Assembly (NCBI GenBank): GCA_963700285.1
Contig: CAVOXA010000001.1
Location: forward strand, 1 to 64,000
Length of the DNA stretch: 64,000 bases
Source of the DNA: an uncultured Chloroflexia bacterium
GTDB taxonomy: Bacteria > Chloroflexota > Anaerolineae > JAAYZQ01
Direction: 5' to 3'
The translations under genes and the position numbers were made by a program. Below the pieces are notes generated by a model. It was not told the origin of the DNA, searched no databases, and was given only the letters and a program-made list of their open reading frames with translations. This document shows, in pieces, positions 12,771 to 47,366 of this stretch. Positions within the stretch are counted from its first letter, which is position 1. The number at the start of each line of letters is the position of its first letter.

Positions 12771-12799
12771 TTGCTATTTTTCAGTCTTTCGGTTATAAT
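12771..12799 (+). promoter_or_regulatory. sigma70-type promoter of the T-box leader
   Basis: TTGCTA-17 nt-TATAAT. Confidence 0.7.
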
Positions 12800-12861
12800 C
12801 AGGTAACATCGGGTGGGGCGCCTAATGCGCTGCTGCCCGTGAGTACAGTTGAATCGTACAC

Positions 12862-13190
12862 CGGCTGTGAAGGGAACGAGTAGGCGTGGCGGAACGTCCA
12901 GAGAGTCCGGCCGGCGTGGTGGAAGCCGGATACAGGAAACCCGCCGAATATCCTCCCAGAGCCGCCAACCCAAAGCTATCTGGTGATGCTGGCCGGGGAT
13001 ACCAACCGGCTGGTGTTCGGTAGCCAGTAGGCTTGGCCGGTTTCGCCCCCCGTTAGCGGGACGTGGGTATTGTCTGGATACTGTGTGAAGGACCGTACCT
13101 GGCTGAGTGAGCGGTAACGCTAGGAAGGGTGGTACCGCGGGAGTATCAAGTCATACGCTCTCGTCCCTTGGGGATGGAGCGTTTTATTGT
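12862..13190 (+). ncRNA. T-box riboswitch, Ile specifier (AUC), transcriptional attenuator
   Basis: Stem I GCTGTGAAGGGAACGAGTAG, AGAGAG bulge, GGTGGAA loop, GAAT-ATC specifier (12950-12952); T-box AAGGGTGGTACCGCGG (13125-13140); terminator GCTC..GAGC + TTTTATTGTT. Confidence 0.9.
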
Positions 13191-13247
13191 TCAAGGCGAC
13201 GCGTGTGGGCAGGAGCCAGTGATGCTCGACACGGAAGGAGCAAGACC

Positions 13248-14222
13248 GTGAAGTACATGGCTTATTCCAAGCTCGGTGGTGTGCCCAATGTTATTGTGGA
13301 CGGAGCAGCCCAGGAGGACACGGTACTAACTCTGAGCCACTGGCCCGGCAGTGGTTCGCCGGCAGAGTTTCGTGCTGACACCAGCACCGAGATCGTGCTG
13401 AACTATCTTGCTACGCCGGGCGCTCAGGAGCAGTATGCGCCCAAGATCTGTGTCGTGTCCAACAATCACTTTGACGAGGATGGTCTGTGCGCGGTCTGGG
13501 CCATGCTGAACCAAAAGCAGTCTCTGAAGGTGCGAGATCTGCTGGTGGATGTGGCCAGGGCCGGTGATTTCAGCACCTATCGGCGTCCACAAGCAGCCAA
13601 GGTGGTGTTCACGATCCGCAGCTACGCTGATCCTGACACCTCGCCCCTTTTCGACAAGCTCGTGGATGATGACGGCAGTGGCAGCCGCCGGTATCAGGCC
13701 CTTTTGCCATTGTTGGAAGACTTTATGGAAGAAACGGATCGGTACGGGCCATTTTGGGACGAGGAATGGTCGGCCATGCTCAGGAGCAAGACGTCAATGG
13801 TTATGGGTGATGTCGAATTGCGCGAGGTCCCTCACGTGGATCTGGCCGTGGCCGAGTCGCCAGAACCCTTGCACCCCATGGTACTCTTTAACAACACCGA
13901 ACGTTTGAGGGTGCTGACAGCGCTGCCTGGAGGCCTATTTCAGTTGCGCTACCGGTACGAGACGTGGGTTCAGTATGCCAGCCGGCCGGTAATGCCTCGC
14001 GTGGACCTCGACCCTCTGCTGCCTCGCCTGCAAGAGATTGAACAAGAGCCCGTCCAGTGGACTTTTGATGGCAATTCAGCCATTACCCCACTGCTTCGGC
14101 CAGTGGGGCCGGATGGTCAGCCAGCCCCCAGTAGCCTGAACCTGGGGGTCCTGCTCGACGAATTGGTGGCTTTCTATGAACGGGAGCAGGGCAATGCCGC
14201 ATTGCAGTGGAATCCATATTAG
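13248..14222 (+). CDS. DUF6687 family protein (DHH-phosphoesterase-like)
   Basis: IVDG..LTLSHWPG..ADTSTEI..NNHFDEDG..A.AGDF. Confidence 0.7.
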   Translation: MKYMAYSKLGGVPNVIVDGAAQEDTVLTLSHWPGSGSPAEFRADTSTEIVLNYLATPGAQEQYAPKICVVSNNHFDEDGLCAVWAMLNQKQSLKVRDLLVDVARAGDFSTYRRPQAAKVVFTIRSYADPDTSPLFDKLVDDDGSGSRRYQALLPLLEDFMEETDRYGPFWDEEWSAMLRSKTSMVMGDVELREVPHVDLAVAESPEPLHPMVLFNNTERLRVLTALPGGLFQLRYRYETWVQYASRPVMPRVDLDPLLPRLQEIEQEPVQWTFDGNSAITPLLRPVGPDGQPAPSSLNLGVLLDELVAFYEREQGNAALQWNPY

Positions 14223-14252: not shown

Positions 14253-14975
14253 ATGACCGAGCAGTTGTATCAGACAGATAGCTATCTGCAAGCCTTCGAT
14301 GCCGTGGTGATGGCGGTGGATGGCCAGGTGGTGGCTTTGGATCGTACAGCCTTCTACCCTGGTGGAGGCGGCCAGCCCGCCGACGTGGGATCACTTGCTT
14401 GGGCTGGTGGCTCATCCCAAGTTGTCCAAGTGAAAAGGCGGGGCCCCGAAGTGTGGCACACCCTATCCGGCGAGGTACCAGGGGAAGGGACATCAGTGCA
14501 CGGGCAGTTGGATTGGCAGAGACGCTATCGTCTGATGCGTACCCACACTGCCCTCCATGTACTGTGCGGGGTTGTCTGGCGCGATTATGGTGCAGCGGTC
14601 ACTGGTGGGAACATGGAGCCTTTGAAGGGCCGCATGGACTTTGAATTCGAGACGATGCGCAGGGAGTTGGTAACCGAGATCGAGGCCAGTGTTAATGCCG
14701 AGGTAGCCAAGGACCACCTGGTGCGCATTGCCATCTTGCCCCGCGAGGAGGCATTTGAGATCCCGGATCTGATTCGTACCAAGATCAACCTGCTGCCGCC
14801 CCAGATTCAGGAGGTACGCACGGTAGAGATCGTGGACCTCGATCTGCAGGCGGATGGCGGTACGCACGTGGCCAACACCAGAGCGGTGGGACCGGTGCGC
14901 GTGGTGGACTATAAGAGCAAGGGCGCCATAAACAAGCGCATCTATGTTGAGCTGGATGCAGGGGAGAACGAATAG
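14253..14975 (+). CDS. alaX: AlaX-type stand-alone aminoacyl-tRNA editing protein
   Basis: LYQTDSYL, TAFYPGGGGQPAD, MRTHTALH (HxxxH), QADGGTHV. Confidence 0.9.
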   Translation: MTEQLYQTDSYLQAFDAVVMAVDGQVVALDRTAFYPGGGGQPADVGSLAWAGGSSQVVQVKRRGPEVWHTLSGEVPGEGTSVHGQLDWQRRYRLMRTHTALHVLCGVVWRDYGAAVTGGNMEPLKGRMDFEFETMRRELVTEIEASVNAEVAKDHLVRIAILPREEAFEIPDLIRTKINLLPPQIQEVRTVEIVDLDLQADGGTHVANTRAVGPVRVVDYKSKGAINKRIYVELDAGENE

Positions 14976-15174: not shown

Positions 15175-18100
15175 ATGTTTGAGCCAGTGCCCAATCAAGT
15201 GGATTTTGTCAAGCAAGAGCACGAGGTGCTTGACTTTTGGCAGCGTACGGATGCTTTCAATAAACTGAGAGAAAAGAATAAGGGAAACGCGACCTTCTCT
15301 TTCATCGATGGGCCGATCACGGCCAACAACCCCATGGGTGCACATCATGCTTGGGGGAGGACCTACAAAGATCTGTTCCAGCGCTATAGGGCTATGCTTG
15401 GCCTTGACGAGCGCTGGCAGAACGGCTTTGATTGCCAGGGACTGTGGGTTGAGGTCGAAGTTGAGAAAGAGATGGGCTTTGAGACCAAGAAGGACATCGA
15501 ATCCCACGGTTTGGCCAGCTTTGTCAACCTCTGCAAGCAGCGTGTGTTAGAGTACTCAGCCGTGCAGACCCAGCAGTCCATACGGCTTGGCTATTGGGCC
15601 GATTGGAACGACATCGACCAACTGCGCCACCTCAAGGCCAAGATGGCGGAAGATCCGACGCAGGTCGTCACCGTGGAGGGCCCCCTGGGTCCGGTGACGG
15701 ACACGGTTGAGCAGATCGTTGGGCGACTGGGCTTGCCGGAGCTGGGCGGCAGCTACTATACTTTCAGCAACGAGAACAACTATAACATCTGGACCGCCTT
15801 GAGCAAGTGCCATCACAACGGCTGGATCTACAAGGGCACGGACGTGATGCCCTGGTGTGCTCGCTGCGGTACCGGAATCAGCCAGCACGAGATCGTGACC
15901 GAAGGGTATCAGGAACTGACACATCGCAGCGTTTTTCTCCGATTCCCCCTCCGGGAGCGGCCAGGTGAGGACCTGCTGGTGTGGACTACTACCCCGTGGA
16001 CGCTGACCAGCAACGTTGGCGCGGCAGTGCATCCCGAACTACCGTACGTCTTGGTCGAACAGGCGCCTGCCCAGAGCGAAGCCGAAGGGCCTGCCCTGAG
16101 CAAAGTCGAAGGGCCAAGGCGGTTCTGGTTGAGCAAGGGCGCCCTGGACAACGCCTTGCGCGGGGCATATACTGTGCTGGACGAGAAACTAGGCGCCGAG
16201 CTTGAGGGCTGGACCTACGACGGTCCCTTTGATGAGCTGCCTGCCCAGCAGGCAAGCGGGTCGGTAGCCGCTCACCAGGTTGTTCTTTGGGATGACGTTG
16301 GAGAGGTCGAGGGCACAGGCATTGTTCACATGGCCCCTGGTTGCGGTGCGGAGGACTTTGAACTCGGGAGAGAACTGGGTCTGCCGGCCATCGCGCCTTT
16401 GAACGACGGGGGTGTTTTTGTGGATGGTTTTGACTGGCTGACTGGAACGAGCGTCCATGAGTCCGCCCAGCCGATCTTTGAGAATCTGGAGGCAAAAGGC
16501 CTTCTTTACCGTCTGCAGAACTATACCCACCGCTACCCGGTATGCTGGCGCTGCCATGAGGAACTCGTCTTCCGGCTGGTGGATGAGTGGTTCATCCACA
16601 TGGGAGACCAATTGGAAAAGCCCTACGAGCAGGTCACAGAGGACGAAAAGTCATCCCGGCTGCGGTACCAGATCATGGAGGTGGTGCAGGACACACGCTG
16701 GATCCCCTCGTTTGGTTATGAACGGGAGATGGATTGGTTGCGCAACATGCATGATTGGATGATCTCCAAGAAGCGCTACTGGGGCCTGGCCCTGCCGATC
16801 TGGGAGTGCCAGGAGTGCGGCTGGTTTGATGTCATCGGTAGCCAAGAAGAGCTGAAGGAGAGAGCGGTCGCTGGTTGGGATGAGTTTGAGGGGCACCCGC
16901 CCCACCGGCCCTACGTGGATGCCGTACAAGTCCGCTGCGAGCAGTGTGGTGCGACGGCGAGCCGGATCTCGGATGTAGGCAATCCGTGGTTGGATGCTGG
17001 CATCGTCGCTTATTCTACCCTGCAGTACCGGACCGATCGGGACTACTGGCGCAAATGGTTCCCGGCGGACCTGATCACCGAGAGCTTTCCAGGCCAGTTT
17101 CGCAATTGGTTCTACAGCATGCTGGCCATGAGCACCATAATGGAGCGCGAGGCGCCCTTTAGGGCGGTGCAGACCTACGCAACCCTCTTTGCCGAGGACG
17201 GGCGGGCCATGCACAAAAGCTGGGGCAACTCTATCGAGTTCAATGACGCCGCGGACACGATGGGGGTGGATGTGATGCGCTGGATGTACTGCGCCCACAA
17301 GCCCGAAGCCAACCTGCTTTTCGGCTACCACCGCGCCGACGAGACCCGGCGCCGCTTCCTGATCCCGCTGTGGAACGTCTACTCTTTCTTTGTAACCTAC
17401 GCCAACCTGGATGGCTGGACACCAGAGGGAGCCCAGGCTACGGTGCAACAGGGACCCTTGTCTGAGCTGGATCGGTGGATGCTTGCCAGGTTGAATACGG
17501 TCGTAGCCCGGGCGACCGAGTGTATGGACAACTATGATCCATATGGGATGACGCTGGTTGTAGAGCCCCTCCTGGATGATCTTACCAATTGGTATGTACG
17601 CCGCAGCCGCCGTCGTTTCTGGAAGAGCGAGCAAGATGAGGACAAGGACGGGGCCTATGCCACGCTCTACCATGTCTTGCTGACCTTGAGCAGGCTACTG
17701 GCGCCCATCGTCCCCTTTGTGACTGAGGTAATGTACCAGAACCTGGCGCGTACCGTCGACAAGGGCGCGTGTGAGAGCGTGCACCATTGCGCTTGGCCGG
17801 AGACGGATGAAAGCTTGGAAGATCAGGGCTTGCTGGACCGCATGGCTTTGGCGATGCAGATCTCTGCCCTGGGCCGGTCGGCACGCAGCACCTCGGGCGT
17901 CAAGCTGCGGCAGCCACTTTCCCGGGCCAGGGTCTATGCCGGCAAGCGTGCTCCGGACCTCGGGGCCCTGACGGAACTGGTGACCGATGAACTCAATGTG
18001 AAGGCCATCGAGTTTGTGGACAAGGAAGCCGATCTGGTCGAGTATGAGATCGGCCTGTTGCCCAACGTCCTTGGCCCAAAGTACGGCAAGCGCTTTCCCT

Positions 18101-18579
18101 TGCTCCGCAAAGCCGTGGCAGGCGCGGATGCGGGTGCGCTGGCCGGGCGCTTCCAGGCCGGTCTCACGCTGAGCCTGGACCTGGATGACGGGGGGCCGGC
18201 GGCTGAGTTGCTGCCGGAAGAGGTAGAGATCCGTACCCATGGGCGCGAGGGCTATGCCGTAGCCGAGGAGAAGGGAATCATCGTCGCTGTGGACGTTGTC
18301 CTGACCCCTCAGTTGGCTCGCGAGGGTCTGGCCCGCGATCTTGTACGTCGCATCCAGACGCTTCGCAAGGATGCAGATCTGCAGCTTGACGATCGCATTA
18401 AAACCTACTATGATGGCCAAGGTGAATTGGACATCGTCGTGGCAGAATGGGCCAGCTACATCCAGGCCGAGACGCTCAGCCTGGAACTTGTCCCCGGCCC
18501 ACTGCCTGATGATCTGGTCCAACAGGGTGCCTTTGAAGTCGGCGGGCATGAGGTAGAGTTGGGCATCCGGAAAACCTAG
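15175..18579 (+). CDS. ileS: Isoleucine--tRNA ligase, type 2, GxHH signature variant
   Basis: DGPITANNPMGAHH, WTTTPWTL, GTGIVHMAPGCGAEDF, ISKKRYWG, AMHKSWGN, LTNWYVRRSRRRFW; Ile T-box upstream. Confidence 0.93.
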   Translation: MFEPVPNQVDFVKQEHEVLDFWQRTDAFNKLREKNKGNATFSFIDGPITANNPMGAHHAWGRTYKDLFQRYRAMLGLDERWQNGFDCQGLWVEVEVEKEMGFETKKDIESHGLASFVNLCKQRVLEYSAVQTQQSIRLGYWADWNDIDQLRHLKAKMAEDPTQVVTVEGPLGPVTDTVEQIVGRLGLPELGGSYYTFSNENNYNIWTALSKCHHNGWIYKGTDVMPWCARCGTGISQHEIVTEGYQELTHRSVFLRFPLRERPGEDLLVWTTTPWTLTSNVGAAVHPELPYVLVEQAPAQSEAEGPALSKVEGPRRFWLSKGALDNALRGAYTVLDEKLGAELEGWTYDGPFDELPAQQASGSVAAHQVVLWDDVGEVEGTGIVHMAPGCGAEDFELGRELGLPAIAPLNDGGVFVDGFDWLTGTSVHESAQPIFENLEAKGLLYRLQNYTHRYPVCWRCHEELVFRLVDEWFIHMGDQLEKPYEQVTEDEKSSRLRYQIMEVVQDTRWIPSFGYEREMDWLRNMHDWMISKKRYWGLALPIWECQECGWFDVIGSQEELKERAVAGWDEFEGHPPHRPYVDAVQVRCEQCGATASRISDVGNPWLDAGIVAYSTLQYRTDRDYWRKWFPADLITESFPGQFRNWFYSMLAMSTIMEREAPFRAVQTYATLFAEDGRAMHKSWGNSIEFNDAADTMGVDVMRWMYCAHKPEANLLFGYHRADETRRRFLIPLWNVYSFFVTYANLDGWTPEGAQATVQQGPLSELDRWMLARLNTVVARATECMDNYDPYGMTLVVEPLLDDLTNWYVRRSRRRFWKSEQDEDKDGAYATLYHVLLTLSRLLAPIVPFVTEVMYQNLARTVDKGACESVHHCAWPETDESLEDQGLLDRMALAMQISALGRSARSTSGVKLRQPLSRARVYAGKRAPDLGALTELVTDELNVKAIEFVDKEADLVEYEIGLLPNVLGPKYGKRFPLLRKAVAGADAGALAGRFQAGLTLSLDLDDGGPAAELLPEEVEIRTHGREGYAVAEEKGIIVAVDVVLTPQLAREGLARDLVRRIQTLRKDADLQLDDRIKTYYDGQGELDIVVAEWASYIQAETLSLELVPGPLPDDLVQQGAFEVGGHEVELGIRKT
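16065..16113 (+). repeat. Two tandem 24-bp mini-repeats inserted in frame in ileS
   Basis: GCCTGCCCAGAGCGAAGCCGAAGG / GCCTGCCCTGAGCAAAGTCGAAGG, encoding APAQSEAEGPALSKVEG. Confidence 0.8.
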
Positions 18580-18686: not shown

Positions 18687-21401
18687 ATGCTTGACGAAAT
18701 GGCGCTTGGTACAAGCTTCACGCGCATAGAGGAAGAGGTTCGGCGCTTCTGGCGCAGGCGGGAGGTGCCAGAATTAGGCCGCACCGCGCGTCGCGATGGG
18801 CAGCCCTATCTCATCTACCAGGAGCCGCTGGCAGTGGCGGGCCAGGCGTGGATCGACCAGGTGCGATTGTTTTCCACGACCGATCTGCTGGCCCGATATC
18901 GGGCCATGCGCGGCGATGCAGTGCGTCGCCAGATAGGCTGGCTCTGCCATGGTCTGCAAGTTGAGGTTGCCGTGGAACGCTCTCTGGCCGAGGCCGCCGC
19001 GGCTGACACCACGGCACAGCATCATGTACCAGCGACACAGAGCGCCGTCGCACATTTCAACGCTGCCTGTTGGAATGCCACTACCGAAGGGCTGCGCCAG
19101 GGAGAACGCTTGGCCGAGCGTCTAGGAGTATGGAGTGACCCGGCTGGTACCTGCACATCCTGCACAGCCCAGGCTATTGCGGCAGTTTGGGGAGCACTCC
19201 ACAGACTGTGGGGCGCGGGGCAGCTTATCGCTGAACAGGGCGTGGTACCTGTGTGCCCTCGTTGTGCTACTCCTCTTTCGACCTCCGAGTCAGAACTTTC
19301 TACAGTTCAAGTCGAGACCCGTTCCCTCTGGGTTCGTCTTCCTTGGGCAGGCGAACCTGGCGCATATCTGTTGGCTTGGAGCTCTTCCCCGTGGATGCTC
19401 GTTGGTATGGTGGCCCTGGCTGTCCATCCTGATGCCGACTATGCCTTGATTGAGCTTGTCGAGGAAGGTAACAGTCCTTCTGAACGATTGCTCCTTGCCG
19501 AGTATGCCCTCGCCAGTATGCCAACCGGGGGCTATCGGCTTTTGCGACGCCTTCGAGGTAGAACCCTACGCGATACGCAGTACCGTCCCCCTTTCACCTT
19601 CCTGCCTGCTGCTCAAGGTACTGGGCGTGTCATGCTGAGCAAGGATGTACCCCTGGATCGCGGTACCGGGCTGCAGATCTTGACACCTACTTTTGATACC
19701 TCATCGTTTGAGCTGGCCAAGGCCCAGGGCCTTCCCGTGCCTCGACTATTGGACGATGGCGGTATTCTGGACAGTACAGTGATGCGCTGGCGGGGCCTCT
19801 CACCTCTGGATGCCGAGCCCTTGCTCATCGAAGACCTGCGGGCGCGTGGATTGCTGTTCCAGGACACTCCCAGCTCACAGGTTCGCAGACTGTGTCCCTA
19901 CTGCGAGACGCCCCTGTTGCCTCTGGCCCGTGACGTGTGGCAGGTAGTCACGCCGGACGGCCCCTGGGTCATTGGCCGGGATAGGGCTTGGGGCGTTCCC
20001 CTGCCGGTCTGGGTCTGTGAAGACTGTTCGGAACAGGTCTGTGTAGCTGGCTTGGACGATCTGGCCCATCGGACGGGTCTAGATATCCAGCAGATTGACC
20101 TGCACCGCCCGGCGGTAGATGCTGTCACCTTCCCCTGCCCGAGCTGTCGCGGAACGATGCGGCGAGTAGAGCCTGTCGTTGATGCGAGATTTGAAGCATC
20201 TGTGCTCTCCCTTTCCTCATGGCCGTCCGGCAGTCTGATATCTCCTTCGACCGGCTCTTTCGATCCAGCTCGTGGTCAAGAACTCGGCCGGAGCTTGGCG
20301 GTCGGGGTTGGCAAACAAGGTTCTGGTTGGTTGGGCGACCTTGGTCGAACAGCGGTACTCCTGAAAGGACTGCCGATTGCCGATCGGACAGTGGCCCTGC
20401 CCGAGCTGGGCTCGATGGTGCCTTGGGAGCATGGCCGCAATGTCGTGCCAAACGCGCCGGCCGATGCGCTGCGTTGGGCGACCTACATGGGCACCACCCC
20501 GGAACAAGCTGAACAAGGGTTTCTGCTGCCTGTGTGGCAGTTGGCTGCAAACCTCCAGGCAGGTGATGCCCATCCCGTCGAGGAGGAAGTAAAAGATGCC
20601 ACGGATGACCTCCTTGGTCGTTGGTTGAAAGCTTTCTTGCACCAGGCCATCGAGACAATAACCGGAGCCCTGGACACCGGCGATACACACCAGGCGGCTG
20701 GAGTGCTCGCTGGGTTGGTGAATGATCTGTCTACCTGGTACGCGCTCCGTCAGCCTGGTGGCCAAAGGGCAGCAGTTTTGGTCTTGAGCCAGTTGCTCGC
20801 GCCCTTTCTACCTCATTTGGCTGAGGCCATCCATCGTCGGCTTCTCAAGTCAACAGGGGACAGCGTACATCTGGGCGCCTGGCCAGTTCCTGACCCAGCT
20901 TGGGCAGATCCGGAACTGGTAGCCCATATGTCAGAGGTCCAGCGGCTGGCCACCCTTGGAGAGACTGCCCGAGCGCAAGCAGGCATCGGGCCAGACCTTC
21001 CTTTGTGCCATGCGTTTGTTGGCTTGGGCAAGACCAAATCCAGCGGGTTAGAAGCCCTTGCCCCATTCAGAGATCTGCTAGCCGAGATGCTGGGTGTGGA
21101 TCAAGCGCACTTTGAGGGCGAGATGGCGGCGCCCCTGAGGTGGCAGCTCGATCTAGAGGCAGAGGCAGTCCAACGTGGCAATCTACCATCGACGATCCGG
21201 ACGGCTCTTGGTGGATTGAACCCCGAAAGGGCCGCAGAAATGGCTGCGCAGCTTGATGCGGGTCTGAGCGTGGGGCTCGAGATAGAGGAGCAGACTGTCA
21301 CACTGCTGCCTGACGAGGTGAGCATTTCGGTGCGGAGCGAGCCGGGCTGGATTGCCGCCGAAGGCTCTGGGCAGGTTGTCGCCCTGGAGCTCTCCCGTTA
21401 G
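18687..21401 (+). CDS. Divergent IleRS2 paralog lacking HIGH, KMSKS and editing motifs (putative pseudo-synthetase)
   Basis: Collinear with IleRS (GWLCHGLQVE, CPRC, CPYC, RAWGVPLPVWVCEDC, DLHRP.VD..CPSC, DALRW, DLSTWY, LLAPFLPHLAEAI); signature motifs absent. Confidence 0.85.
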   Translation: MLDEMALGTSFTRIEEEVRRFWRRREVPELGRTARRDGQPYLIYQEPLAVAGQAWIDQVRLFSTTDLLARYRAMRGDAVRRQIGWLCHGLQVEVAVERSLAEAAAADTTAQHHVPATQSAVAHFNAACWNATTEGLRQGERLAERLGVWSDPAGTCTSCTAQAIAAVWGALHRLWGAGQLIAEQGVVPVCPRCATPLSTSESELSTVQVETRSLWVRLPWAGEPGAYLLAWSSSPWMLVGMVALAVHPDADYALIELVEEGNSPSERLLLAEYALASMPTGGYRLLRRLRGRTLRDTQYRPPFTFLPAAQGTGRVMLSKDVPLDRGTGLQILTPTFDTSSFELAKAQGLPVPRLLDDGGILDSTVMRWRGLSPLDAEPLLIEDLRARGLLFQDTPSSQVRRLCPYCETPLLPLARDVWQVVTPDGPWVIGRDRAWGVPLPVWVCEDCSEQVCVAGLDDLAHRTGLDIQQIDLHRPAVDAVTFPCPSCRGTMRRVEPVVDARFEASVLSLSSWPSGSLISPSTGSFDPARGQELGRSLAVGVGKQGSGWLGDLGRTAVLLKGLPIADRTVALPELGSMVPWEHGRNVVPNAPADALRWATYMGTTPEQAEQGFLLPVWQLAANLQAGDAHPVEEEVKDATDDLLGRWLKAFLHQAIETITGALDTGDTHQAAGVLAGLVNDLSTWYALRQPGGQRAAVLVLSQLLAPFLPHLAEAIHRRLLKSTGDSVHLGAWPVPDPAWADPELVAHMSEVQRLATLGETARAQAGIGPDLPLCHAFVGLGKTKSSGLEALAPFRDLLAEMLGVDQAHFEGEMAAPLRWQLDLEAEAVQRGNLPSTIRTALGGLNPERAAEMAAQLDAGLSVGLEIEEQTVTLLPDEVSISVRSEPGWIAAEGSGQVVALELSR

Positions 21402-21572
21402 CCGGAGCGAAACTCACTTCAGTCCCCGGGGCCGTCTCGGGGGCCATCTAGCACCAGAAACCGGTCATATGCGATTGCCCTATCCCCAAAGCGAGGGCAA
21501 CTTGCTCATTTTGCCACCTTGCAGTAGAATGTAACCTACTGTTGGCTTGAATAGATTCTGGTAGGAGGTAGA

Positions 21573-21917
21573 ATGGTCGTAAGAAGTCCCGACATGCTCC
21601 GGTCGTTCTTGGAGGATGAGCGGGCGCGACTACGTAAAGTCATCTCCCAGATGGACGCCGAGGGCAAAGTGAACCTTGGTTACGGGAATCACATGGCCGA
21701 TGATGCCAGTGAGGCATTTGAGCAAGCCAAAGATCTGGCCTTGCGTCAAAATGCTGAACAGTTGCTGGAACAGGTTGACGACGCGCTCGTCCGCTTCGAT
21801 CAAGGAACCTTTGGAATCTGCGAACAATGCGGTACCGAGATCGATCCGGCGCGGCTCAAGGCGCTGCCCTATGTGACATATTGCCTTCACTGCCAGCAGC
21901 GGCTTGACGCCCAATAG
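21573..21917 (+). CDS. TraR/DksA C4-type zinc finger protein
   Basis: NHMADDAS, GTFGICEQCG.EI..ARLKALPY..YCLHC. Confidence 0.9.
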   Translation: MVVRSPDMLRSFLEDERARLRKVISQMDAEGKVNLGYGNHMADDASEAFEQAKDLALRQNAEQLLEQVDDALVRFDQGTFGICEQCGTEIDPARLKALPYVTYCLHCQQRLDAQ

Positions 21918-21929: not shown

Positions 21930-22490
21930 TTGCGATCCAAACATCGAATTAGAAACTGGGCCGTGCTCGTTGGGCTGACCTTGCTCCTTTTGGCTTTGGA
22001 CCAGGGCAGCAAGTGGCTTGTCCGGCAGAACCTGGCATTTGGCGAGGCCTGGGCGCCGGTTCCTGCCCTCTCGAGGTTCTTTACAGTTACGCATGTGCAG
22101 AACACGGGGGTAGCCTTTGGTCAGATGCCTGGCCTGGGTTGGCTCTTCCTGCTCGTGAACGTGGGCGTGGCGGTCGGGATCTTGATCTACTATTCCCGTA
22201 TTCCCCAGGGACAGTGGCTTTTGCGCTTGGCCTCGGCCCTGATCCTCGCTGGGGCCCTGGGCAATATGATCGATCGTGTGCGGACGACGTACCTGGCCGC
22301 GCCTATCACGGGCAGCATCTGGAGCGCGTTGCCTCTGGCCTACGTTACCGATTTCGTGGATGTCAAGATCTGGCCTGTTTGGAATATCGCTGATATGTGC
22401 GTCGTGAGCGGGGTCGCGATCCTGGCCTGGACGTTGTGGCGGGGGGAGAGGGCCGCATTGGCCAAACAAGCAATGACCAATGACCAATGA
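21930..22490 (+). CDS. lspA: Lipoprotein signal peptidase II
   Basis: LDQGSK, NTGVAFG, GALGNMIDR, VTDF, WNIAD; downstream of ileS as is common. Confidence 0.93.
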   Translation: MRSKHRIRNWAVLVGLTLLLLALDQGSKWLVRQNLAFGEAWAPVPALSRFFTVTHVQNTGVAFGQMPGLGWLFLLVNVGVAVGILIYYSRIPQGQWLLRLASALILAGALGNMIDRVRTTYLAAPITGSIWSALPLAYVTDFVDVKIWPVWNIADMCVVSGVAILAWTLWRGERAALAKQAMTNDQ

Positions 22491-22561: not shown

Positions 22562-23509
22562 ATGACTATGAGCTTGCGACAGATTGAACTGCAGGTCAGT
22601 ACCGGAGGAAGCCGGCTGGACCGGTTCCTGGCCGAACAAGTCCCGGAGCTTTCTCGCTCGGCAGCGCAACGGCTGATTGATGGTGGAAAAGTCGCTGTGA
22701 ACGGGGAACTGCTAAAGGCCAGCTACAAGGTCAAGCCGGGCGATCTGGTGGTGGCCTTTCTGCCTGGGATGGAAGAAACTGAGCTGCTGGCCGAACCCAT
22801 CCCACTCACTGTCGTCTATGAGGATGATGCCCTGATCGTAGTGGACAAGCCGCCGGGAATGGTGGTTCACCCTGCTCCGGGCCACACCGGTGGGACACTG
22901 GTCAATGCTTTGTTGGCCTATTGTCCTGAGCTGGCCGGTAGTGGCAACAGGCCAGGCATTGTCCATCGCCTGGACCAGGACACGTCCGGGTTAATCCTGG
23001 TGGCCAAGAGTGAGAAGGTCCGGCGAGGGCTACAACAGCAGTTCAAGGATCGGCAGGTGGAAAAGGCCTACCTGACTCTGCTGGATGGCCACCTGCAGCC
23101 GGCCTGGGGACGGATTGAGGCGCCCCTTGGCCGCGATCCACGCCACCGGCAGCGGATGTCCGTCCTCCCTGGCGGGCGCGAGGCTGAAACAGAGTACCAC
23201 GTGCTGGAGCAGTATGCTCACCAGACCGGAGTGGTGGCCGGTGACTATGCCCTGGTTGAAGCCGAGCCCAGGACAGGGCGTACCCACCAGATCCGTGTCC
23301 ATTTTGCCTCAATTGGCCATCCCGTGGTAGGGGATTCAGTATATGGCCGCCGTCGCCCACAACTGCCTGTACCCCGGCAGTTCCTCCATGCCTGGCGGCT
23401 GGGATTCAAGCACCCAACCACCGGGCGGCGTATAAACCTGGAGACGCCTCTGCCGCCAGATCTATCGCCGGTGCTGGAATTGTTGAGGAAGGGCATCCAG
23501 CCAATCTGA
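22562..23509 (+). CDS. RluA/RluD family pseudouridine synthase
   Basis: S4 domain RLDRFL, HRLDQDTSG, TGRTHQIRVH, QFLHA. Confidence 0.93.
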   Translation: MTMSLRQIELQVSTGGSRLDRFLAEQVPELSRSAAQRLIDGGKVAVNGELLKASYKVKPGDLVVAFLPGMEETELLAEPIPLTVVYEDDALIVVDKPPGMVVHPAPGHTGGTLVNALLAYCPELAGSGNRPGIVHRLDQDTSGLILVAKSEKVRRGLQQQFKDRQVEKAYLTLLDGHLQPAWGRIEAPLGRDPRHRQRMSVLPGGREAETEYHVLEQYAHQTGVVAGDYALVEAEPRTGRTHQIRVHFASIGHPVVGDSVYGRRRPQLPVPRQFLHAWRLGFKHPTTGRRINLETPLPPDLSPVLELLRKGIQPI

Positions 23510-28800: not shown

Positions 28801-29652
28801 CTATTTCTTGTTCTTCTTTTCCTTGCCTTTCTTTCCTTTCCGTTTTGACTTCTTGTCTTTCTTCTTCTCTTTCATATCCTGGTCCTGTTCGGCCTTTTGT
28901 TTCACTCTGTCGGCTTTGGACAGGGGATTGGGAGGAACATAATCCAGTTCTTCGCTTAGCAAGTGCACCAGGGTTCGCAGGGTCTTTACCCTGGCGTACC
29001 ACTTGCAGTCGCCCTCGACGATGGTCCACGGGGCAGTGAGCGTGCTCGTCTTGAGGATCATGTCGCTGATCGCTTCTTCGTACAGATCCCACTTTTCACG
29101 GTTGCGCCAGTCCTCGTCGGTTAGTTTCCAGGCCTTGTAGGGTGTCTCGCTGCGGGCCTCAAAGCGACGCAATTGCTCCTCCTTGCTGATCTGTATCCAG
29201 AATTTTGCGAGGATGGTACCAAAATCGGCCAATTGGCGCTCGAATTCGTTGATCTCACGGTAGGCCCGCTTCCACTCTGCCTCGCTGCAAAACCCTTCCA
29301 GCCGTTCAACCATCACCCGGCCGTACCAACTGCGGTCAAAGAAAAGGACCTGCTTTTCGTCGGGCGCCTGGAGACGCCGCCAGAACCGCCATAGGTAGTG
29401 GTGTGTCTTGTCTTCACCTTGAGGTGCGGCGATGGGGTAGACCTCATAGCCCCGCGGATCTAGCTTCTCGGTGATGCGCTTGATGTTGCCGCCCTTGCCG
29501 CCCGCATCCCACCCCTCGTAGACGATCACCAGCGGCCGCTTCTGAACGTACAACTGATAGGCCAGGGCGCGTAGCTGCAGTTGGTAGCGGATCAAATCGC
29601 GAACGTACTCGTCTCTCGTCAGCGTCTTGCTCAGATCAACGGTCTCCAGCAT
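28801..29652 (-). CDS. Polyphosphate kinase 2 family protein with Lys-rich tail
   Basis: EGWDAGGKGG, LDPRG, FDRSWYGRV.VER, WKLTDEDW. Confidence 0.93.
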   Translation of the reverse strand: MLETVDLSKTLTRDEYVRDLIRYQLQLRALAYQLYVQKRPLVIVYEGWDAGGKGGNIKRITEKLDPRGYEVYPIAAPQGEDKTHHYLWRFWRRLQAPDEKQVLFFDRSWYGRVMVERLEGFCSEAEWKRAYREINEFERQLADFGTILAKFWIQISKEEQLRRFEARSETPYKAWKLTDEDWRNREKWDLYEEAISDMILKTSTLTAPWTIVEGDCKWYARVKTLRTLVHLLSEELDYVPPNPLSKADRVKQKAEQDQDMKEKKKDKKSKRKGKKGKEKKNKK

Positions 29653-29661
29653 GGCTCCCTC

Positions 29662-30546
29662 CTACTCCTCTCCCGCCTGCGCCTCTGCTTCGGCCGCTAG
29701 CTCTGCTTCCAGGTCTTCATCGTCATCCTCTTCCTCCGAGAATTGCTCATCCACGTATTCATGCTCCCCTGGCAGCTCGGGCGCCCGCTCCGTTTTGCGA
29801 TCGGGGCGGCGTCGCTCTTCTGGTAGTTCAAAGCCCCGCTCCTTCAATGCTTCCTCCAGGCGCTGGATGATGGTCTGAAAGATCTTGACCCGCGCCCAGC
29901 GTCGATCTGTGGCCTCGACGATGGTCCATGGTCCCCACTCGGTATCGGTTCGTTCCAGCATCTCCTCGATGGCCAGTACATATTCGTTATACTTGCGGTG
30001 GTGCTCCCAATCCTCCGGCTGCACGTGCCAGCTCTTGAGCGGGTCTTTCTCCAGTGTCTTGAAGCGGCGCTTTTGCTCCTGCTTGCTAATGTGCAGGAAG
30101 AACTTGATAATGATATAACCATCATCGGCGATGGTCCGCTCAAAGTCGTGGATGTCCCGATAGCCCCTCCGCCATTCCGACACCGGCGTCAGGCCCTCTA
30201 CCCGTTCTACCAGAAGGCGGCCATACCAGCTCCGGTCAAAGATGGCCATCTCGCCATAGTTGGGCAGCTTTAGCCAGAATCGCCACAGCCAGGGCAGGTG
30301 CGTCTCAAAGGTGCGCGCCCCCTGGATGGCGTAGAGTTTGAACCCGCGCGGATCAAGGCGCGAAGTCAGCAGGTTGATGGAGGTCCCTTTGCCGGCAGCA
30401 TCCCAGCCCTCAAAGACGATGATGCTGGGCAATTTTGCATCCCAGCAAGCCTTTTCCAGGTCGTAGAGACGCCGCTGAAGACGGGGAATCAGGACTCTGT
30501 ACTCCTCCTTCGATAGCTTGCGGTTGAGGTCGATTTTCTCCAGCAT
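29662..30546 (-). CDS. Polyphosphate kinase 2 family protein with acidic tail
   Basis: EGWDAAGKGT, LDPRG, FDRSWYGR..VER. Confidence 0.93.
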   Translation of the reverse strand: MLEKIDLNRKLSKEEYRVLIPRLQRRLYDLEKACWDAKLPSIIVFEGWDAAGKGTSINLLTSRLDPRGFKLYAIQGARTFETHLPWLWRFWLKLPNYGEMAIFDRSWYGRLLVERVEGLTPVSEWRRGYRDIHDFERTIADDGYIIIKFFLHISKQEQKRRFKTLEKDPLKSWHVQPEDWEHHRKYNEYVLAIEEMLERTDTEWGPWTIVEATDRRWARVKIFQTIIQRLEEALKERGFELPEERRRPDRKTERAPELPGEHEYVDEQFSEEEDDDEDLEAELAAEAEAQAGEE

Positions 30547-30571
30547 AGATGACGACTCCTTCCAGTCCTCG

Positions 30572-32355
30572 CTACAGAACCATGACTGCTTCTGCAATCA
30601 ACTGGCTGAAACCTGTTCCTGTAAGCTTCTGCCATGCCCCGGGAAATGTGTCCAATAGGCACTGCATCTCGCCTGCTGCGCCGTCAGGTAGGCGGTCACG
30701 CCTGGGGAGACGATCGCTTCCGCAGGGTCGGACAGCTGCGCTGGGATGGTTTGTTGCCCCCAAGTTCCCCGGCAAAGGTAGTCGCGCAAGATGCTGCTGG
30801 CCACAACGGTATCCTGCAGTGCGCCCAGGTGGTCTTGCATCGCGACTACCTCCTCGATGATGGTCCCGGTATCCGGCCCCAGCACCTCTTGGAAGAACTC
30901 CAACGTGTAGCGCAGCCGCTTGCACGCGATACGCAAGGCATGCAGCCGGGCCGGCGGCGGGTCGGGGATGCAGACCCACTCGTCGTAGGCGCGCACATTC
31001 GCCAGCCGCTGGTAAATAGTCACGGGCGCTACGTGGCGCACGCGGTAGGGCCGTGGGTCATTGCCGCCGGGGTCGGCGCCAAGACTGCCCATTCCAAAAG
31101 TCTCCACAAATGTTCCAAATTGATCGACAAAACACCGGTATTGATTCCCATCCAGGTGGGCGAGCATCTGGGCGCGGGCTGCATCGCGTTGTCTCTCAAG
31201 GAGGGCCAGGAGGTCATCCAGGCTGTCCCGCTGCGATTCAGGCAGGTTATCCAGATATGCCTGGACTGTGGCCCGAAATACGTCCAGGTCGCGTACTGCA
31301 CCCAGGGCCCGACCGGTCTGCTTTAGGCCCTCTAGATAGGGTGCGATCGCCTCGGCCTCGTAGTAAGGGCCAAAGATCCGGAAGGCAGCCCTCATGCGCC
31401 GCGTCGCGACCCGCATCTGGTGCAGAGCCTCAATGTCCGCCCCCAAGCGCGTACCGGGCTCGTTGTCAACCATCCGCTGGAAGTGGAAACGCAGGGTCTT
31501 GCGGCCAGCTTCGCCCATGGGATCTTTGGGCTCGATGCCTGGCTGCTCGACCAGTCGGATCTGCTCCAGGTGTGTCTGCCTGCCTTCAACACCGCTCACT
31601 TCGATGGTTATAGCCGATGCTCCCTCGGTCGAGCTTTCCCCAACGGTTGCTGGCATCCGGCCCACCGTCGAGTTCTCCATGGCCGGTGTGGGTGGCGCCT
31701 GACCGGCAAGCGGGACTTGGAAGACAGCTTCCGGCCCTGTAGTTCCTCCTTTGTGGAGGGCCAACCCCCGATCGTACTTGGACCGACTCTCCGGCGCCAA
31801 CTCCCATAGCTCCTGCAGCTCTGTGCTGATCTGTTCCAAATCCTCTTCACGGCCATCAGCAACCAGTTCTGCTTCGAGTTCCAGAAAGCTGGCAGCCATG
31901 TCTTCCCGGGAAATGCGCACACGGTCCAAACTCACTTCGGCAACCAGGCGGTCGCCGTCATAGAGGGGACGGCTGTACCGGGTCTGCTTGACCTCAAACA
32001 TGGCGGTCAGTTCCTCAGTATCGCATAGGCGCAGCATTGTGTCACGCGCGGCGCCGGAGGGCCATGCCTGAGGTGGCTGGGGCTCAGGTAGCTCAACCTG
32101 GTGTTCCGCCCTCCGATGGACGGCGCCTGAAACCCCTCCAAGGCCCTTGAGCGTGGCCAGCGTGATCCTGTCTGTTTGGCGTATTCGATAGGCATATCCC
32201 CCAGCACGGATGGCCCCATCCTTGGTATCCAGGTAGCGGTCATGCAGCTCAGCGATGGACACTTTGCCAAGGGTGAATCTGGCCAAGGTGCCAGTCTCCA
32301 GCAACCGCTGAAGTGCCTCTTCATCGGAAATCTGGAACTTGGCCTCAATCTCCAA
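30572..32355 (-). CDS. CYTH + CHAD domain protein (probable frameshift near 30670)
   Basis: MEIEAKF, DRYLDT, ELEAEL, SKYDRG (CYTH); LHQMRVATRRMRA, LGAVRDLDV, LHALRIACKRLRY, QDHLGALQD (CHAD). Confidence 0.9.
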
Positions 32356-39332: not shown

Positions 39333-40088
39333 CTACAGAGGGTACCTATCGCCATCGTGGGCCAGGCTCACCGGGCCGGGGAATTCAGAAGCTGCCCGGC
39401 GCCAAGCCTCCAGATTCACATCCCGCACGGGATAATGGGTGAGAGCCAGCTTTTCCACACTCGCTGCACGGGCGACCTCTGCGGCTTGGGCCGGTGACGA
39501 GTGACCAGGGTACTCTCCAGATGCTTCGTGGATCAGTAGATCTGCACCAAAAGCCAGCCTGATCAGGGCTGGACAGGGCTCTGTATCCCCCGAGTAGACA
39601 ATGGCCCGTCCGGTCTCAGTGTTCTCGAAGCGAAATGCCAGCGCCTGCATGCCCCTGTGACGAACAGGCGTGGCGATAATCCGTACCCCCTCCACTTCCA
39701 GAACCCGCCGATGCTCGCGCAGGAGAACTGGCTGCCATTCCAGGGAAAACATGTCGGCGCGTTCGGCCAGGCTGAACATCTCCAGCAGGCTGCGAGCGAT
39801 GTCCAGGGCTTCTGTGGGACCGTAGATGGGCAGTGGATCCTCGCGCCCGCCAAGCCACAGGCCCTGGATGAGCAAGGGCAAGCCGTAAATGTGGTCAGCA
39901 TGATGGTGGGTCAGGACCACGGCTCGGATCGATGCCATCTCTACCCCAACTCGAGCGAGCTTGTAGAGGGGACTGCCTCCGCAGTCGATCAGAACTGCCC
40001 AGTCGGGTCCGCAGAGCACCTGGCCGACGGTATCATGTCCCGCGTCGGGGACAGAGGCTGCGGTGCCCAGAACGATCAGTTCAGGCAT
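39333..40088 (-). CDS. Ribonuclease Z-like MBL-fold protein
   Basis: LGTAAS, DCG, THHHADH, YSGDT, HEAS, HSS, LTHY. Confidence 0.82.
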   Translation of the reverse strand: MPELIVLGTAASVPDAGHDTVGQVLCGPDWAVLIDCGGSPLYKLARVGVEMASIRAVVLTHHHADHIYGLPLLIQGLWLGGREDPLPIYGPTEALDIARSLLEMFSLAERADMFSLEWQPVLLREHRRVLEVEGVRIIATPVRHRGMQALAFRFENTETGRAIVYSGDTEPCPALIRLAFGADLLIHEASGEYPGHSSPAQAAEVARAASVEKLALTHYPVRDVNLEAWRRAASEFPGPVSLAHDGDRYPL

Positions 40089-40111
40089 CGGTAGGCCTCC
40101 TGAGACAAGGG

Positions 40112-41077
40112 CTAAACTGCGAGACCCCGGTCATCCCAGTCAGCGAAAAGATCGGTTCGGATGTCCCGCGGAATGAGGACTGACAGGGCGCGCGGGACTA
40201 CCTCACATTCAAAGGGGGTCGAGCCGAATGGTTCGCCGTCCACGTGAATGGCCATGGGCTTGTCAGTCTCAACCCGGATCCTGCGACCCAGGTGCAGGCT
40301 ATGGCGGGGATCGCGGACGTGCAATCCCGTAATCACACCCAACGCGGTCCGCATCACAGAAACAAAACCTGTGCCGGCGAAAATATTCACATCCAGAAGG
40401 CCATCATCGAGCCTCGCATCTGTGGCGATGCGCACCAGCCCGCCATAGAGCTGGGAGTTACTGATGACTATCAATATGGACCGCCGGTTGATGCGTTCGT
40501 CGTCAATGGTGATGCGACTCCGTACGCCAGCCATGTTGGCCGCGATGGTCACACCGGCGACGATGTAGCCCAGGGTACCCAATCTCCGCTGGCGGCGTGT
40601 GCGGGGTTCCATGGCATAAGTCACCTCGGCGTCCAGCCCAAGCCCGGCCCATTGTAAGAAATAGTGCCCGCTATCGCCAACGATGATCTTACCCAGATCG
40701 ATGCGCCGGATGGTGCCTGGCAGCAAGGCCTTGACCGAGTCTACGAGGGGCAGCATGTGGCGCGGAGAACGGGTGGGCAAACCCAGTTCCTTGGCCCAAA
40801 CATTGCCCGTACCTCCTGGCAAGACGCCCAGGGCTACTGGTCCTTCGGCCAGTCCATTGATAACCTCGTTAATGGTGCCATCGCCGCCAACCACGAATAC
40901 AGCATCAAGGCCCTCGTCTCGAGCTTGCCAAGCCAGTTCGGTTGCTTCTCCGGCCCGACTGGTCAGATGCAGGCTGGCCTGCCAGTCATGGGCTTCCAGG
41001 TGGCTCAGGACAGCCGGTAACTCGCGCTGTATGTTCCACGGTCCGGATGTAGGGTTCACGATCAGCTTGGATCGCAT
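40112..41077 (-). CDS. Diacylglycerol/lipid kinase family (YegS/BmrU)
   Basis: IVNPTSG, GGDGTINEV, LPGGTGN, VDGE. Confidence 0.9.
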   Translation of the reverse strand: MRSKLIVNPTSGPWNIQRELPAVLSHLEAHDWQASLHLTSRAGEATELAWQARDEGLDAVFVVGGDGTINEVINGLAEGPVALGVLPGGTGNVWAKELGLPTRSPRHMLPLVDSVKALLPGTIRRIDLGKIIVGDSGHYFLQWAGLGLDAEVTYAMEPRTRRQRRLGTLGYIVAGVTIAANMAGVRSRITIDDERINRRSILIVISNSQLYGGLVRIATDARLDDGLLDVNIFAGTGFVSVMRTALGVITGLHVRDPRHSLHLGRRIRVETDKPMAIHVDGEPFGSTPFECEVVPRALSVLIPRDIRTDLFADWDDRGLAV

Positions 41078-41353
41078 ACTAGGCTCCATCCGTTTCGCCG
41101 TGGGAGAAACCACTGAGACGCCCTCGTTCCCCATGACATGTCGCCATTATACCAAAGCTTTGCACCCTGTACCAATCAACAGCAGTCTGCTGCCGCCTTG
41201 TCCAAAGATGCGACTTGGTGTACAATAGATTGTTGGGATAGGCCAAAGCTGCTTGGATGCGCAGGCAGGCGGGTTCCGGGTTTCGGAGTCTAGCTTACGG
41301 CTTTCAAGGCAAGCTGTGCTACACTGCGAGGGTGGTTATTTGGGAGGCTTGAA

Positions 41354-43159
41354 GTGAATGTAAACTGGAGAGGGGCACTTGTCTATGTACTTATTCTGGT
41401 CGCTGCCGGTGCCCTGATACTTGGGGTTTTCCCTACGAATGAGCGACTGGAGGAAATCCCACTTTCCCAATTGGTGGCTGACATCAACGATGGGAAAGTA
41501 GAGGCGGTCACGGTCAAGAATGAGGGCTTGGAGGTGACCTACAAGGATGAGAGCGCCGTTACATCTCGCAAAGAAGATGACATAGAACTCACCGATACTC
41601 TTGTGAGGATGGGTGTGGACCCCGCTGCGCTCGATCAGGTGGATATTCAGGTCGAGACGCCCAATCCCCTGGGGGAATGGGTGGCCATCCTGGGCAGTTT
41701 TCTCCCCTTTATTTTCCTGGCCGTGATTTTCTTCTTTCTAATGCGCCAGGCGCAGGGCAGCAACAACCAAGCTATGTCCTTTGGCAAGAGCCGGGCGCGG
41801 ATGTTCACCGGTCAGAAGCCGACAGTCACTTTTGATGATGTAGCGGGTGTTGACGAAGCCAAGCAAGAGTTGGTCGAGGTTGTAGAATTCCTCAAAGAAC
41901 CACAAAAGTTTATTGCCCTCGGGGCCCGTATCCCCAAGGGCGTCGTGCTGGTGGGTCCACCCGGCACGGGAAAAACTCTCCTGGCCAAGGCAGTGTCTGG
42001 CGAGGCAGGTGTCCCGTTCTTTTCAATCTCTGGTTCCGAATTTGTCGAGATGTTTGTGGGAGTGGGAGCCGCTCGGGTTCGCGATCTTTTCGACCAGGCC
42101 AAGCGCAACTCGCCGTGCATCATTTTTGTGGATGAGATTGATGCGGTGGGCCGCCATCGAGGTGCGGGGCTGGGGGGGTCGCACGACGAACGAGAGCAAA
42201 CCCTCAACCAGATCCTGGTCGAAATGGATGGCTTTGGAACGGATACCAACATCATTGTGGTTGCCGCCACCAACCGGCCCGACATCTTGGATCCGGCGCT
42301 GCTGCGCCCTGGGCGTTTTGACCGTCGCGTGGTCCTCGATCGACCCGACATTGAGGGCCGCAAGGGCATCCTCGAGGTTCATGTGCGGGGCAAGCCTCTG
42401 GCCAGGGAAGTGGATCTGGCAGTTCTAGCCCGCCAGACGCCTGGTTTCGTGGGAGCTGACATTGAGAATATGGTCAACGAGGCTGCCATCTTGGCTGCCC
42501 GCGGAAACAAGAAATCCATCGGCATGGAGGAACTGGAAGAGGCCGTGGTGCGAGTTGTTGCTGGACCGGAGCGCAGGAGCCGGATCATATCCGACGACGA
42601 GAAAAAGATCTTGGCCTATCACGAAGCTGGACACGCTCTGGTCCAGAACAAGCTGCCCAACTGCGATCCTGTCCACAAGGTTTCCATTGTAGCTCGAGGG
42701 ATGAACCTGGGTTACACGATGGCTTTGCCTGAAAAGGACCGCTATCTCTATACACAAGACAAGTTTGAAGATGAGATTGCTGGCATGCTGGCCGGACGCG
42801 TGGCGGAAGAGCTTGTCTACAGCGACAAATGGACAGGGGCTCAGGATGACCTAGAAAAGGCGACGAAAATGGCGCGCAGGATGGTCACGGCCTACGGTAT
42901 GAGCGAAAAGCTGGGCCCCTTGACCTTCGGTGACCGCGACGAGTTGGTCTTTTTGGGACGAGAGATCTCTGAGCAACGCAACTATAGCGAAGAGATAGCC
43001 GAGGAGATCGATTCAGAGATCCGACGGATCCTCGAAGACGCGTATAACAGAGCGCGAGATGTACTGACGGCCTATCGCCAAAAGCTGGATGACATCGCTC
43101 AGCGGCTGATAGAGATCGAGACCATAGACCGCGAAGAGTTCGAGATGCTGGTGGCCTAG
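41354..43159 (+). CDS. ftsH: ATP-dependent zinc metalloprotease FtsH
   Basis: [29 protein letters not shown]. Confidence 0.97.
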
Positions 43160-43245
43160 CTCCAGCGCCAGCCTGGCCCGCAAACGGCCATTAGCCGGAC
43201 AGCCGTCAAGGCGACCTCCCGACCATCTTGTTTCATCATCTGTGC

Positions 43246-43276
43246 AAGCCCCTTCCGTCTAAGGGAAGGGGCTTTT
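43246..43276 (+). terminator. Rho-independent terminator after ftsH
   Basis: AAGCCCCTTCC..GGAAGGGGCTTTT. Confidence 0.7.
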
Positions 43277-43338
43277 AGATCCCCTGATCTTGTTCGAGAG
43301 TAGACACTGGATAACGCTGGGGATAAATATAATAAGAA

Positions 43339-43367
43339 TTGACAATTTTTGGCTCTTGTGCTACAAT
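43339..43367 (+). promoter_or_regulatory. sigma70-type promoter
   Basis: TTGACA-17 nt-TACAAT. Confidence 0.7.
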
Positions 43368-43437
43368 TGCCTACAAGAAGATGAAGGGTCGATTGTCTCG
43401 CCAAAGTTACTCCGGCAATCCGTTGCAGCAGAAAGGA

Positions 43438-44070: not shown

Positions 44071-44147
44071 AGAGGAGCCGAACGGTTCTTTGCGCCAAGG
44101 GATGCAGCAAGCCGGGGTTGTCTGACGAGATTGTGATGAGGAACAGA

Positions 44148-44177
44148 GGCCCGGCCTCTATCGAGGCCGGGCCCTTT
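44148..44177. terminator. Terminator hairpin between convergent genes
   Basis: GGCCCGGCCTC-TATC-GAGGCCGGGCC-CTTT. Confidence 0.6.
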
Positions 44178-44216
44178 GCTGCTGGAACCCAACGACGCGT
44201 GGATACGGTTCTCTCG

Positions 44217-44990: not shown

Positions 44991-45033
44991 ATCACCCCCG
45001 TGTATCTCTTAGCGTTTGGTTCTGTGCTGCTGA

Positions 45034-46334: not shown

Positions 46335-47366
<1,032 letters not shown>

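Follow-up and report, generated by a model that had tools for sequence, protein, structure and literature searches.

The 64,000-nucleotide stretch analysed here, referred to as the window, lies on the forward strand of contig CAVOXA010000001.1 (positions 1 to 64,000; assembly GCA_963700285.1) of an uncultured Chloroflexia bacterium assigned to the Anaerolineae, and it carries two genes for isoleucyl-tRNA synthetase (IleRS)-like proteins side by side. The first of them, ileS, codes for a type 2 enzyme (IleRS2) in which GAHH, the MHKS loop and the editing motifs are all intact. The second, an open reading frame of 904 codons (18687-21401, plus strand) starting 107 nucleotides 3' of the end of ileS, encodes a protein, here called the paralogue, which is 25% identical to the neighbouring ileS product. 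With the TIGR00392 model (cut-off 621.4 bits), the paralogue scores 239.9 bits and stays below the threshold, whereas the neighbouring ileS product reaches 650.9 bits. The two genes close a row consisting of a T-box, DUF6687, AlaX-M, ileS and the paralogue (Table 1), and we infer that this row is co-transcribed from the T-box to the paralogue.

An earlier note, made from the letters of this DNA, had described the 904-codon frame as collinear with IleRS2, and both the translation and the predicted fold bear this out. The AlphaFold2 model, based on a 129-row alignment, has a pLDDT of 88.7 and a pTM of 0.86. The closest solved structures are those of type 2 IleRSs, and Foldseek aligns the model with IleRS2 from P. 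megaterium (8C9D) at a TM score of 0.80 (E 1.7e-72). Chance can be excluded as the reason for the open frame, since neutral simulation at the divergence of a sister genome predicts about 14 stops and gave no stop-free run in 500. All quoted motif changes (HIGH, KMSKS, TTTPWT to SSSPWM, and loss of the editing Asp) are present in the translation, as are the four CxxC pairs (CPRC, CPYC, CEDC, CPSC).

These changes are shared by the whole family of the paralogue, as is clear from a comparison between 112 members (those of 840 residues or more among 120 sequences) and 60 of the 117 Anaerolineae IleRS2s that have intact motifs. Names of domains (HUP, CP, ARD, INS) follow published IleRS papers, and domain borders were set from our alignments. 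Neither a HIGH-like (or GxHH) motif, nor KMSK, nor the editing Asp, nor the ARD3 motif occurs in any of the 112 members, whereas all four CxxC pairs are present in every one. The column of the editing Asp is Ser in 112/112, the editing His has become Pro in 103/112, and the amino-binding Asp column and the pocket motifs WFDSG and QTRGWF are lost as well. Fixed deletions have removed ARD3 entirely, the KMSKS loop, 31 residues following CP1, and parts of both the stem-contact fold and the anticodon helix. The CP1 pocket has been rebuilt and is fixed, with Thr333 in 96/112, Asp or Glu at 337 in 109/112, and Ser340, at the position of the editing Asp, in 112/112; Pro331, Pro334 and Phe336 are also fixed, and Met241 is kept in 108/112.

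For IleRS2 of P. megaterium it has been reported that R721 reads A35/U36 and that R964 of ARD3 reads G34, and that replacing either by Ala lowers aminoacylation to less than 0.001 per s (10.64898/2026.02.03.703510). The paralogue has other residues or gaps where R721 and R964/Q961/K965 would be expected, residue numbering having been verified on an alignment of the paralogue to a solved IleRS2. By ungapped mapping, the column equivalent to R721 is Pro in 81/112 members, while 78 retain an Arg in the column just before it. As the anticodon-reading Arg and the G34-reading ARD3 are gone, specific binding of tRNA-Ile by the paralogue is unlikely, judged from these residues, and a role in tRNA-Ile binding, as proposed in the earlier note, is in this specific form unsupported. 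That note had also counted the anticodon-binding helices and the C-terminal domain as kept; the helical bundle is indeed present, though without the residues that read the anticodon, and what remains of the C-terminal region is ARD2/INS, since about 90 residues of ARD3 are missing.

The ratio of nonsynonymous to synonymous substitution rates (dN/dS) is 0.20 and 0.27 in two congeneric pairs, and 0.17 for the paralogue in 10 genomes in which ileS gives 0.06. Values of 0.17-0.27 are not those of a neutrally decaying pseudogene. By domain, dN/dS is lowest in the CP core with its zinc sites (0.08, 25 codons), in CP2 (0.13) and in CP1 (0.14), and highest in the C-terminal half of the Rossmann fold, ARD1 and ARD2/INS (0.23-0.24), all given without confidence intervals. 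Thus, retention of the stripped protein by selection, suspected from the unbroken frame, holds overall and in each domain (0.08-0.24). A pseudogene would be expected to show dN/dS near 1, stops or frameshifts; the values are far from 1, and the lone frameshifted copy comes from a genome in which ileS is frameshifted too.

A protein search returned 565 matches, of which the top 119 after the query are 44-87% identical to the paralogue and mostly 860-910 residues long; among these, all with an assigned taxon are named Anaerolineae. Orthologues stand behind ileS in relatives of the same Anaerolineae family, so that the expected synteny exists, and the paralogue is present in 14 of 23 genomes of this family. 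Eleven of the 14 copies are full-length, one is intact but ends after ARD1, one is cut by contig ends, and one is the frameshifted copy. At every readable locus an intact ileS lies next to the paralogue. In two further genomes lacking the paralogue contigs end at ileS, and in the other seven there is no such gene at the locus. ARD2/INS is missing in two genomes and in two database proteins of the family. Several frameshifts in ileS of two genomes (G001 and G020; L036, L048) are probably assembly errors, and the paralogue of G001 is intact.

Eighteen genomes from other families showed no member of the family, and none was found in another 300 genomes from the phylum, judged by score and frame length with three candidates scored in each. 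As the wide searches scored two or three candidates per genome, the family is absent elsewhere only in the sense that the genomes searched yielded none. Scans detected five loci at 48-50% identity in metagenomes and one locus of the family among 80 on genome contigs, and an ESM Atlas search gave IleRS/ValRS clusters only. Proteins of the family carry the database label isoleucyl-tRNA synthetase and may therefore be counted among C-terminally remodelled IleRSs in domain-content surveys such as that of 10.64898/2026.02.03.703510. No description of the family was found in the full-text literature, a scope outside which subscription papers and preprint supplements may mention motif-less sequences. 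The paralogue family is real and conserved, and apparently it is undescribed.

In Anaerolineae, the slot between AlaX-M and dksA-lspA holds an IleRS2 of one of two types, short (about 1050 residues, KMSKS) and long (about 1130 residues, xMHKS). These two types alternate in the AlaX-M/dksA-lspA-rluD slot (window 15175-18579; L036-L075, L156-L205), and both are intact in G048, G088, G140, G227 and G242; several genomes of family f27 have both types intact. A profile of the paralogue family gives 605-712 bits with 14 short enzymes, 278-451 with seven long ones and 393-501 with eight outgroups. Of its diagnostic columns, 22 are of the short type, five of the long type and 11 of neither. The paralogue family lacks the 46-residue insert that is found in most long enzymes (one long enzyme also lacks it), its GWxxHGL signature is that of the short type and unlike that of the neighbouring ileS, and in trees it stands next to the short type (SH-aLRT 83 and 94). 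In a 44-row mixture-model tree, preferred over a FastTree result that had grouped all long branches, the family remains unplaced. Descent of the paralogue from a displaced short-type IleRS2 is therefore likely but not proven: profile scores and diagnostic columns agree with the earlier idea that it is no tandem copy of its neighbour, whereas a tree with a tandem-copy origin is not rejected by approximately unbiased (AU) tests.

What could such a protein do? We propose that the paralogue, a predicted folded, zinc-binding, IleRS2-shaped protein that is dead in its motifs and under purifying selection, acts as a non-catalytic binder via CP1, CP2 and the zinc arm, a reading that we hold tentatively and with somewhat less than even confidence. 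A resident short-type IleRS2 would have been the ancestor, and a long-type IleRS2 would have arrived and taken over charging. The old enzyme would then have been retained for a side job, such as binding of a protein partner or of a small ligand, which the newcomer did not cover, or it would have gained this job anew, and it would be induced together with ileS under isoleucine shortage. We would locate the job on the CP1/CP2/zinc arm, given that constraint is weakest at the catalytic and anticodon ends, where these exist at all, and that ARD2/INS is dispensable. In some lineages the job itself is dispensable. A prediction of a complex between residues 1-620 of the ileS product and residues 150-515 of the paralogue scored 0.00 against a mark of 0.32 and counts neither way.

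Several points weigh against this proposal. The locus lacks the paralogue in seven of 23 family genomes, for which the ileS tree requires at least three changes. Neither a partner nor a ligand nor an activity was found for the paralogue, and in the active ileS no change was detected following its loss (17 sites where 14.6 were expected, p 0.29). The low dN/dS of CP1 and CP2, given without confidence intervals, may reflect just more constrained folds. The paralogue evolves at about three times the rate of ileS, and its composition has shifted towards GC-rich codons (Lys 0.9% versus 5.2%), as is expected under relaxed selection. Its invariant residues are mostly Trp, Pro, Gly and Cys common to active enzymes and hence structural. 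For the origin, the AU tests leave the tree joining the family to the long type unrejected (p 0.128 and 0.407).

Some of these points would suit a slowly decaying relic, a displaced enzyme still expressed and selected just to fold harmlessly until a clean deletion removes it. Absence of the gene from the locus in seven of 23 genomes, the existence of shortened forms, the graded decay in family f35 (see below), the GC-rich drift, the mostly structural invariants and the lack of a signal in the partner gene ileS are what one would expect of a relic. Nevertheless, orthologues only 44-55% identical remain full-length, dN/dS is 0.08-0.24 in every domain, new residues such as Ser340 (112/112) and Met241 (108/112) became fixed family-wide, and acquiring a stop or losing the start codon would be a cheaper way out, which makes a relic improbable to us, if not strongly so. 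That the paralogue holds tRNA by shape or by the acceptor end, as an anticodon-blind buffer or chaperone, seems unlikely too. The whole shape of a synthetase is kept, the protein is Arg-rich (8.5%), the operon belongs to an Ile T-box, the anticodon Arg run and ARD3 survive in some other dead lineages, and LeuRS-I, LeuRS2 and SLIMP bind tRNA without charging it (PMC9437257). However, Pro in the R721 column (81/112), the absence of ARD3 in all 112 members, the shortened stem-contact segment and the effect of R721A or R964A (each below 0.001 per s in aminoacylation; 10.64898/2026.02.03.703510) speak against it, and constraint is weakest in ARD1 and ARD2/INS.

The CP1 pocket figures in two further explanations. 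Its fixed residues Pro331, Thr333, Pro334, Phe336, Asp/Glu337 and Ser340 resemble TPxxD of a ValRS-type sequence, CP1 has a dN/dS of 0.14, and AlaX-M is a neighbour, so that a repurposed enzyme hydrolysing or transferring in trans the amino acid of mischarged tRNA might be imagined; we regard it as distinctly unlikely, since the editing Asp is Ser in 112/112, the Thr-rich loop drifts, Asp337 is found where a helix begins in the model and could serve as its cap, the pocket is not common to other dead lineages, and SbzA, the known IleRS-like transferase, retains HIGH and KMSKS (PMC6331615). Alternatively, IleRS2 could have a hidden second job, the rebuilt pocket of this family being a ligand site for an amino acid or the 3' end of an aminoacyl-tRNA and the paralogue an anticodon-blind sensor of isoleucine starvation or a trans-editor; each takeover of charging by a second IleRS2 would then turn the old Anaerolineae enzyme into a pseudo-synthetase. 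To this we assign a low probability; if true, it would amount to a bacterial amino-acid sensor or trans-editor made from a whole class Ia synthetase. A decoy that captures inhibitors, toxins or phage proteins directed against IleRS, which is known as an antibiotic target (10.1101/2023.01.31.526100), would match the patchy distribution and faster evolution, but the surfaces bound by such agents (active site, KMSKS loop, tRNA cleft) are those that were lost and the context is one of housekeeping, with no defence or biosynthetic genes among the annotated neighbours of the paralogue, and we consider it very improbable. Hardly any weight is left for a divergent yet active synthetase: the fold is collinear and IleRS2 tolerates a swapped HIGH motif (10.1101/2023.01.31.526100), yet HIGH, KMSKS, the amino-binding Asp column, WFDSG, QTRGWF and the anticodon readers are lost together, and an intact ileS adjoins at every readable locus.

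With type 2 IleRSs of known structure (P. megaterium 8C9D/8C8V, T. thermophilus 1ILE), the paralogue has in common the fold and domain order up to ARD2/INS, the CxxC pairs, the ileS slot and the Ile T-box. It differs from them in lacking HIGH/GxHH, the KMSKS loop, the editing Asp, the anticodon Arg and ARD3, and in scoring 240 bits against a cut-off of 621. Similarly, LeuRS-I of Sulfolobaceae and LeuRS2 of Halobacteria are nearly full-length class Ia duplicates beside a working enzyme; in a review on pseudo-synthetases, LeuRS-I is reported to bind tRNA-Leu and still to form leucyl-adenylate, and LeuRS2 to keep affinity for tRNA and low activity (PMC9437257). In contrast, the motifs for tRNA binding and for adenylate formation are both missing from the paralogue. 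SbzA, an Ile transferase and the sole IleRS paralogue listed in that review (PMC9437257), is likewise IleRS2-like with a non-canonical role, but it has modified HIGH and KMSKS motifs, uses Ile-tRNA and belongs to a biosynthetic cluster (PMC6331615), none of which applies to the paralogue. SLIMP and HisZ are non-aminoacylating paralogues as well, and their partner or regulatory roles are the kind of job proposed here (PMC9437257). Both are class II folds with known partners, whereas the paralogue is a class Ia fold. IleRS, its parent, is monomeric. As far as motifs tell, the paralogue is more stripped than the described non-charging synthetase paralogues. Known duplicates keep tRNA binding or adenylate formation, and loss of the motifs for both together with continued selection suggests that bacterial IleRS has a function beyond translation, one that its essential activity normally masks.

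Motif loss is not confined to this family. Among 116 representatives in the tree, a pattern search identified 27 proteins outside the paralogue family lacking both motifs, about six of which keep partial motifs. These partial-motif, IleRS2-like proteins (P0176, P0180, P0184, P0191, P0208, P0248) have very low Lys contents and may be SbzA-like transferases. Many more motif-dead IleRS2s are related to Anaerolineales enzymes (P0129-P0157, P0280, P0282), several with ARD3; cluster look-ups gave taxa for two of 20 of the other dead proteins. Of nine dead rows placed under the mixture model, seven are distributed over three distinct positions within the short type (support 99-100), and motif loss in the short type arose at least three further times. 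Some other dead lineages retain the anticodon Arg run and ARD3, and the rebuilt CP1 pocket is not common to them. In family f35 (seven genomes), the short type is intact in three genomes, split in one, in early decay in one (anticodon helix changed, ARD3 cut), in far decay in one, and not found in one; the long enzyme was found in six of the seven, lying elsewhere than in the dksA-lspA slot. The far-decayed and early-decayed copies (L194:5997-9086 in G056 and L239:6855-8147 in G267) are independent and, like the intact ones, still stand before dksA-lspA. Such a natural series of intact, early-decayed, far-decayed, fixed pseudo-enzyme and lost forms would allow one to test which surfaces outlast the redundancy of an essential enzyme. 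A second IleRS copy was detected in none of 71 f34 genomes and none of 37 f40 genomes by score and length only, motifs not being read. Elsewhere, L246:4390-8682 (G308) is a 1430-residue open reading frame with intact IleRS2 motifs and about 380 residues beyond the usual length, and L243:6372-9248 (G394) is a gene of the IleRS1 type that precedes lspA; a long IleRS2 is present in the same genome.

Table 1. Features of the ileS-paralogue locus in the window
Feature	Position	Strand	Remarks
Sigma-70-like promoter upstream of T-box	12771..12799	+	consensus match only
T-box leader	12858..13188	+	specifier ATC (Ile) 12950-12952; terminator-like hairpin 13155-13188; RF00230 match at 12858-13171
DUF6687 gene	13107..14222	+	true start probably behind T-box, near 13257
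AlaX-M-like trans-editing gene	14253..14975	+	same operon; NF040865 283.9 bits, cut-off 300
ileS, intact, long IleRS2 type, 1134 aa	15175..18579	+	GAHH, xMHKS, editing motifs and ARD3 present
Pseudo-IleRS2 gene (paralogue)	18687..21401	+	904 aa; fold of IleRS2; HIGH, KMSKS, editing Asp, anticodon Arg and ARD3 missing
Former HIGH region, aa 46-59	18822..18863	+	Pro47 alone invariant (112/112); motif positions drift; HIGH-like 0/112
CxxC 1 (C190/C193)	19254..19265	+	112/112
CP1 (editing) domain, aa 212-398	19320..19880	+	pocket remodelled but fixed; omega (dN/dS) 0.14
CxxC 2 (C403/C406)	19893..19904	+	112/112
CxxC 3 (C444/C447), CP2	20016..20027	+	112/112
CxxC 4 (C484/C487), CP2	20136..20147	+	112/112
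ARD1 helical bundle, aa 636-765	20592..20981	+	anticodon helix shortened; R721-equivalent column mostly Pro
Sigma-70-like promoter before dksA-like/lspA/rluD	21502..21530	+	conserved; 18/18 family loci reaching dksA, with or without paralogue
DksA/TraR C4 zinc-finger gene	21573..21917	+	followed by lspA 21930-22490 and rluA/D 22562-23509; conserved Anaerolineae ileS slot

The Ile T-box operon suspected in the earlier note exists, a T-box with an AUC specifier heading the gene row. Against RF00230 it matches the full model with 79.1 bits (E 1.6e-17) and is missed at the Rfam gathering score of 93, which one relative's locus exceeds (94.7 bits). The AUC specifier and a UGGU antiterminator bulge occur in the T-box of the window and in all four relatives' loci displayed. 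The whole genome has six T-box leaders, all of them below the gathering score and thus likely missed by standard annotation. In this family, DUF6687 and AlaX-M stand behind an Ile T-box, and DUF6687 may belong to translation quality control. Contigs near-identical to the paralogue gene are present in RNA libraries of four out of four sediment metatranscriptomes at a depth of 2-5, and scattered contigs also fall on a control region (40001-60000) that was not chosen as silent. A spacer or anti-polarity element is an unlikely role for the paralogue, since the downstream genes have a promoter-like site of their own before the dksA-like gene and the paralogue frame is unneeded for onward transcription. 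An internal promoter-like site at 18386-18414 is not conserved in relatives. A gene of the exo/endo/phosphatase family lies directly 3' of ileS in three genomes (L043:7457-8521, L038:5590-6333, L055:6051-7151), in two of them between ileS and the paralogue and in the third in a genome lacking the paralogue. Farther downstream, the window contains two tandem polyphosphate kinase 2 genes on the minus strand (28801-30597).

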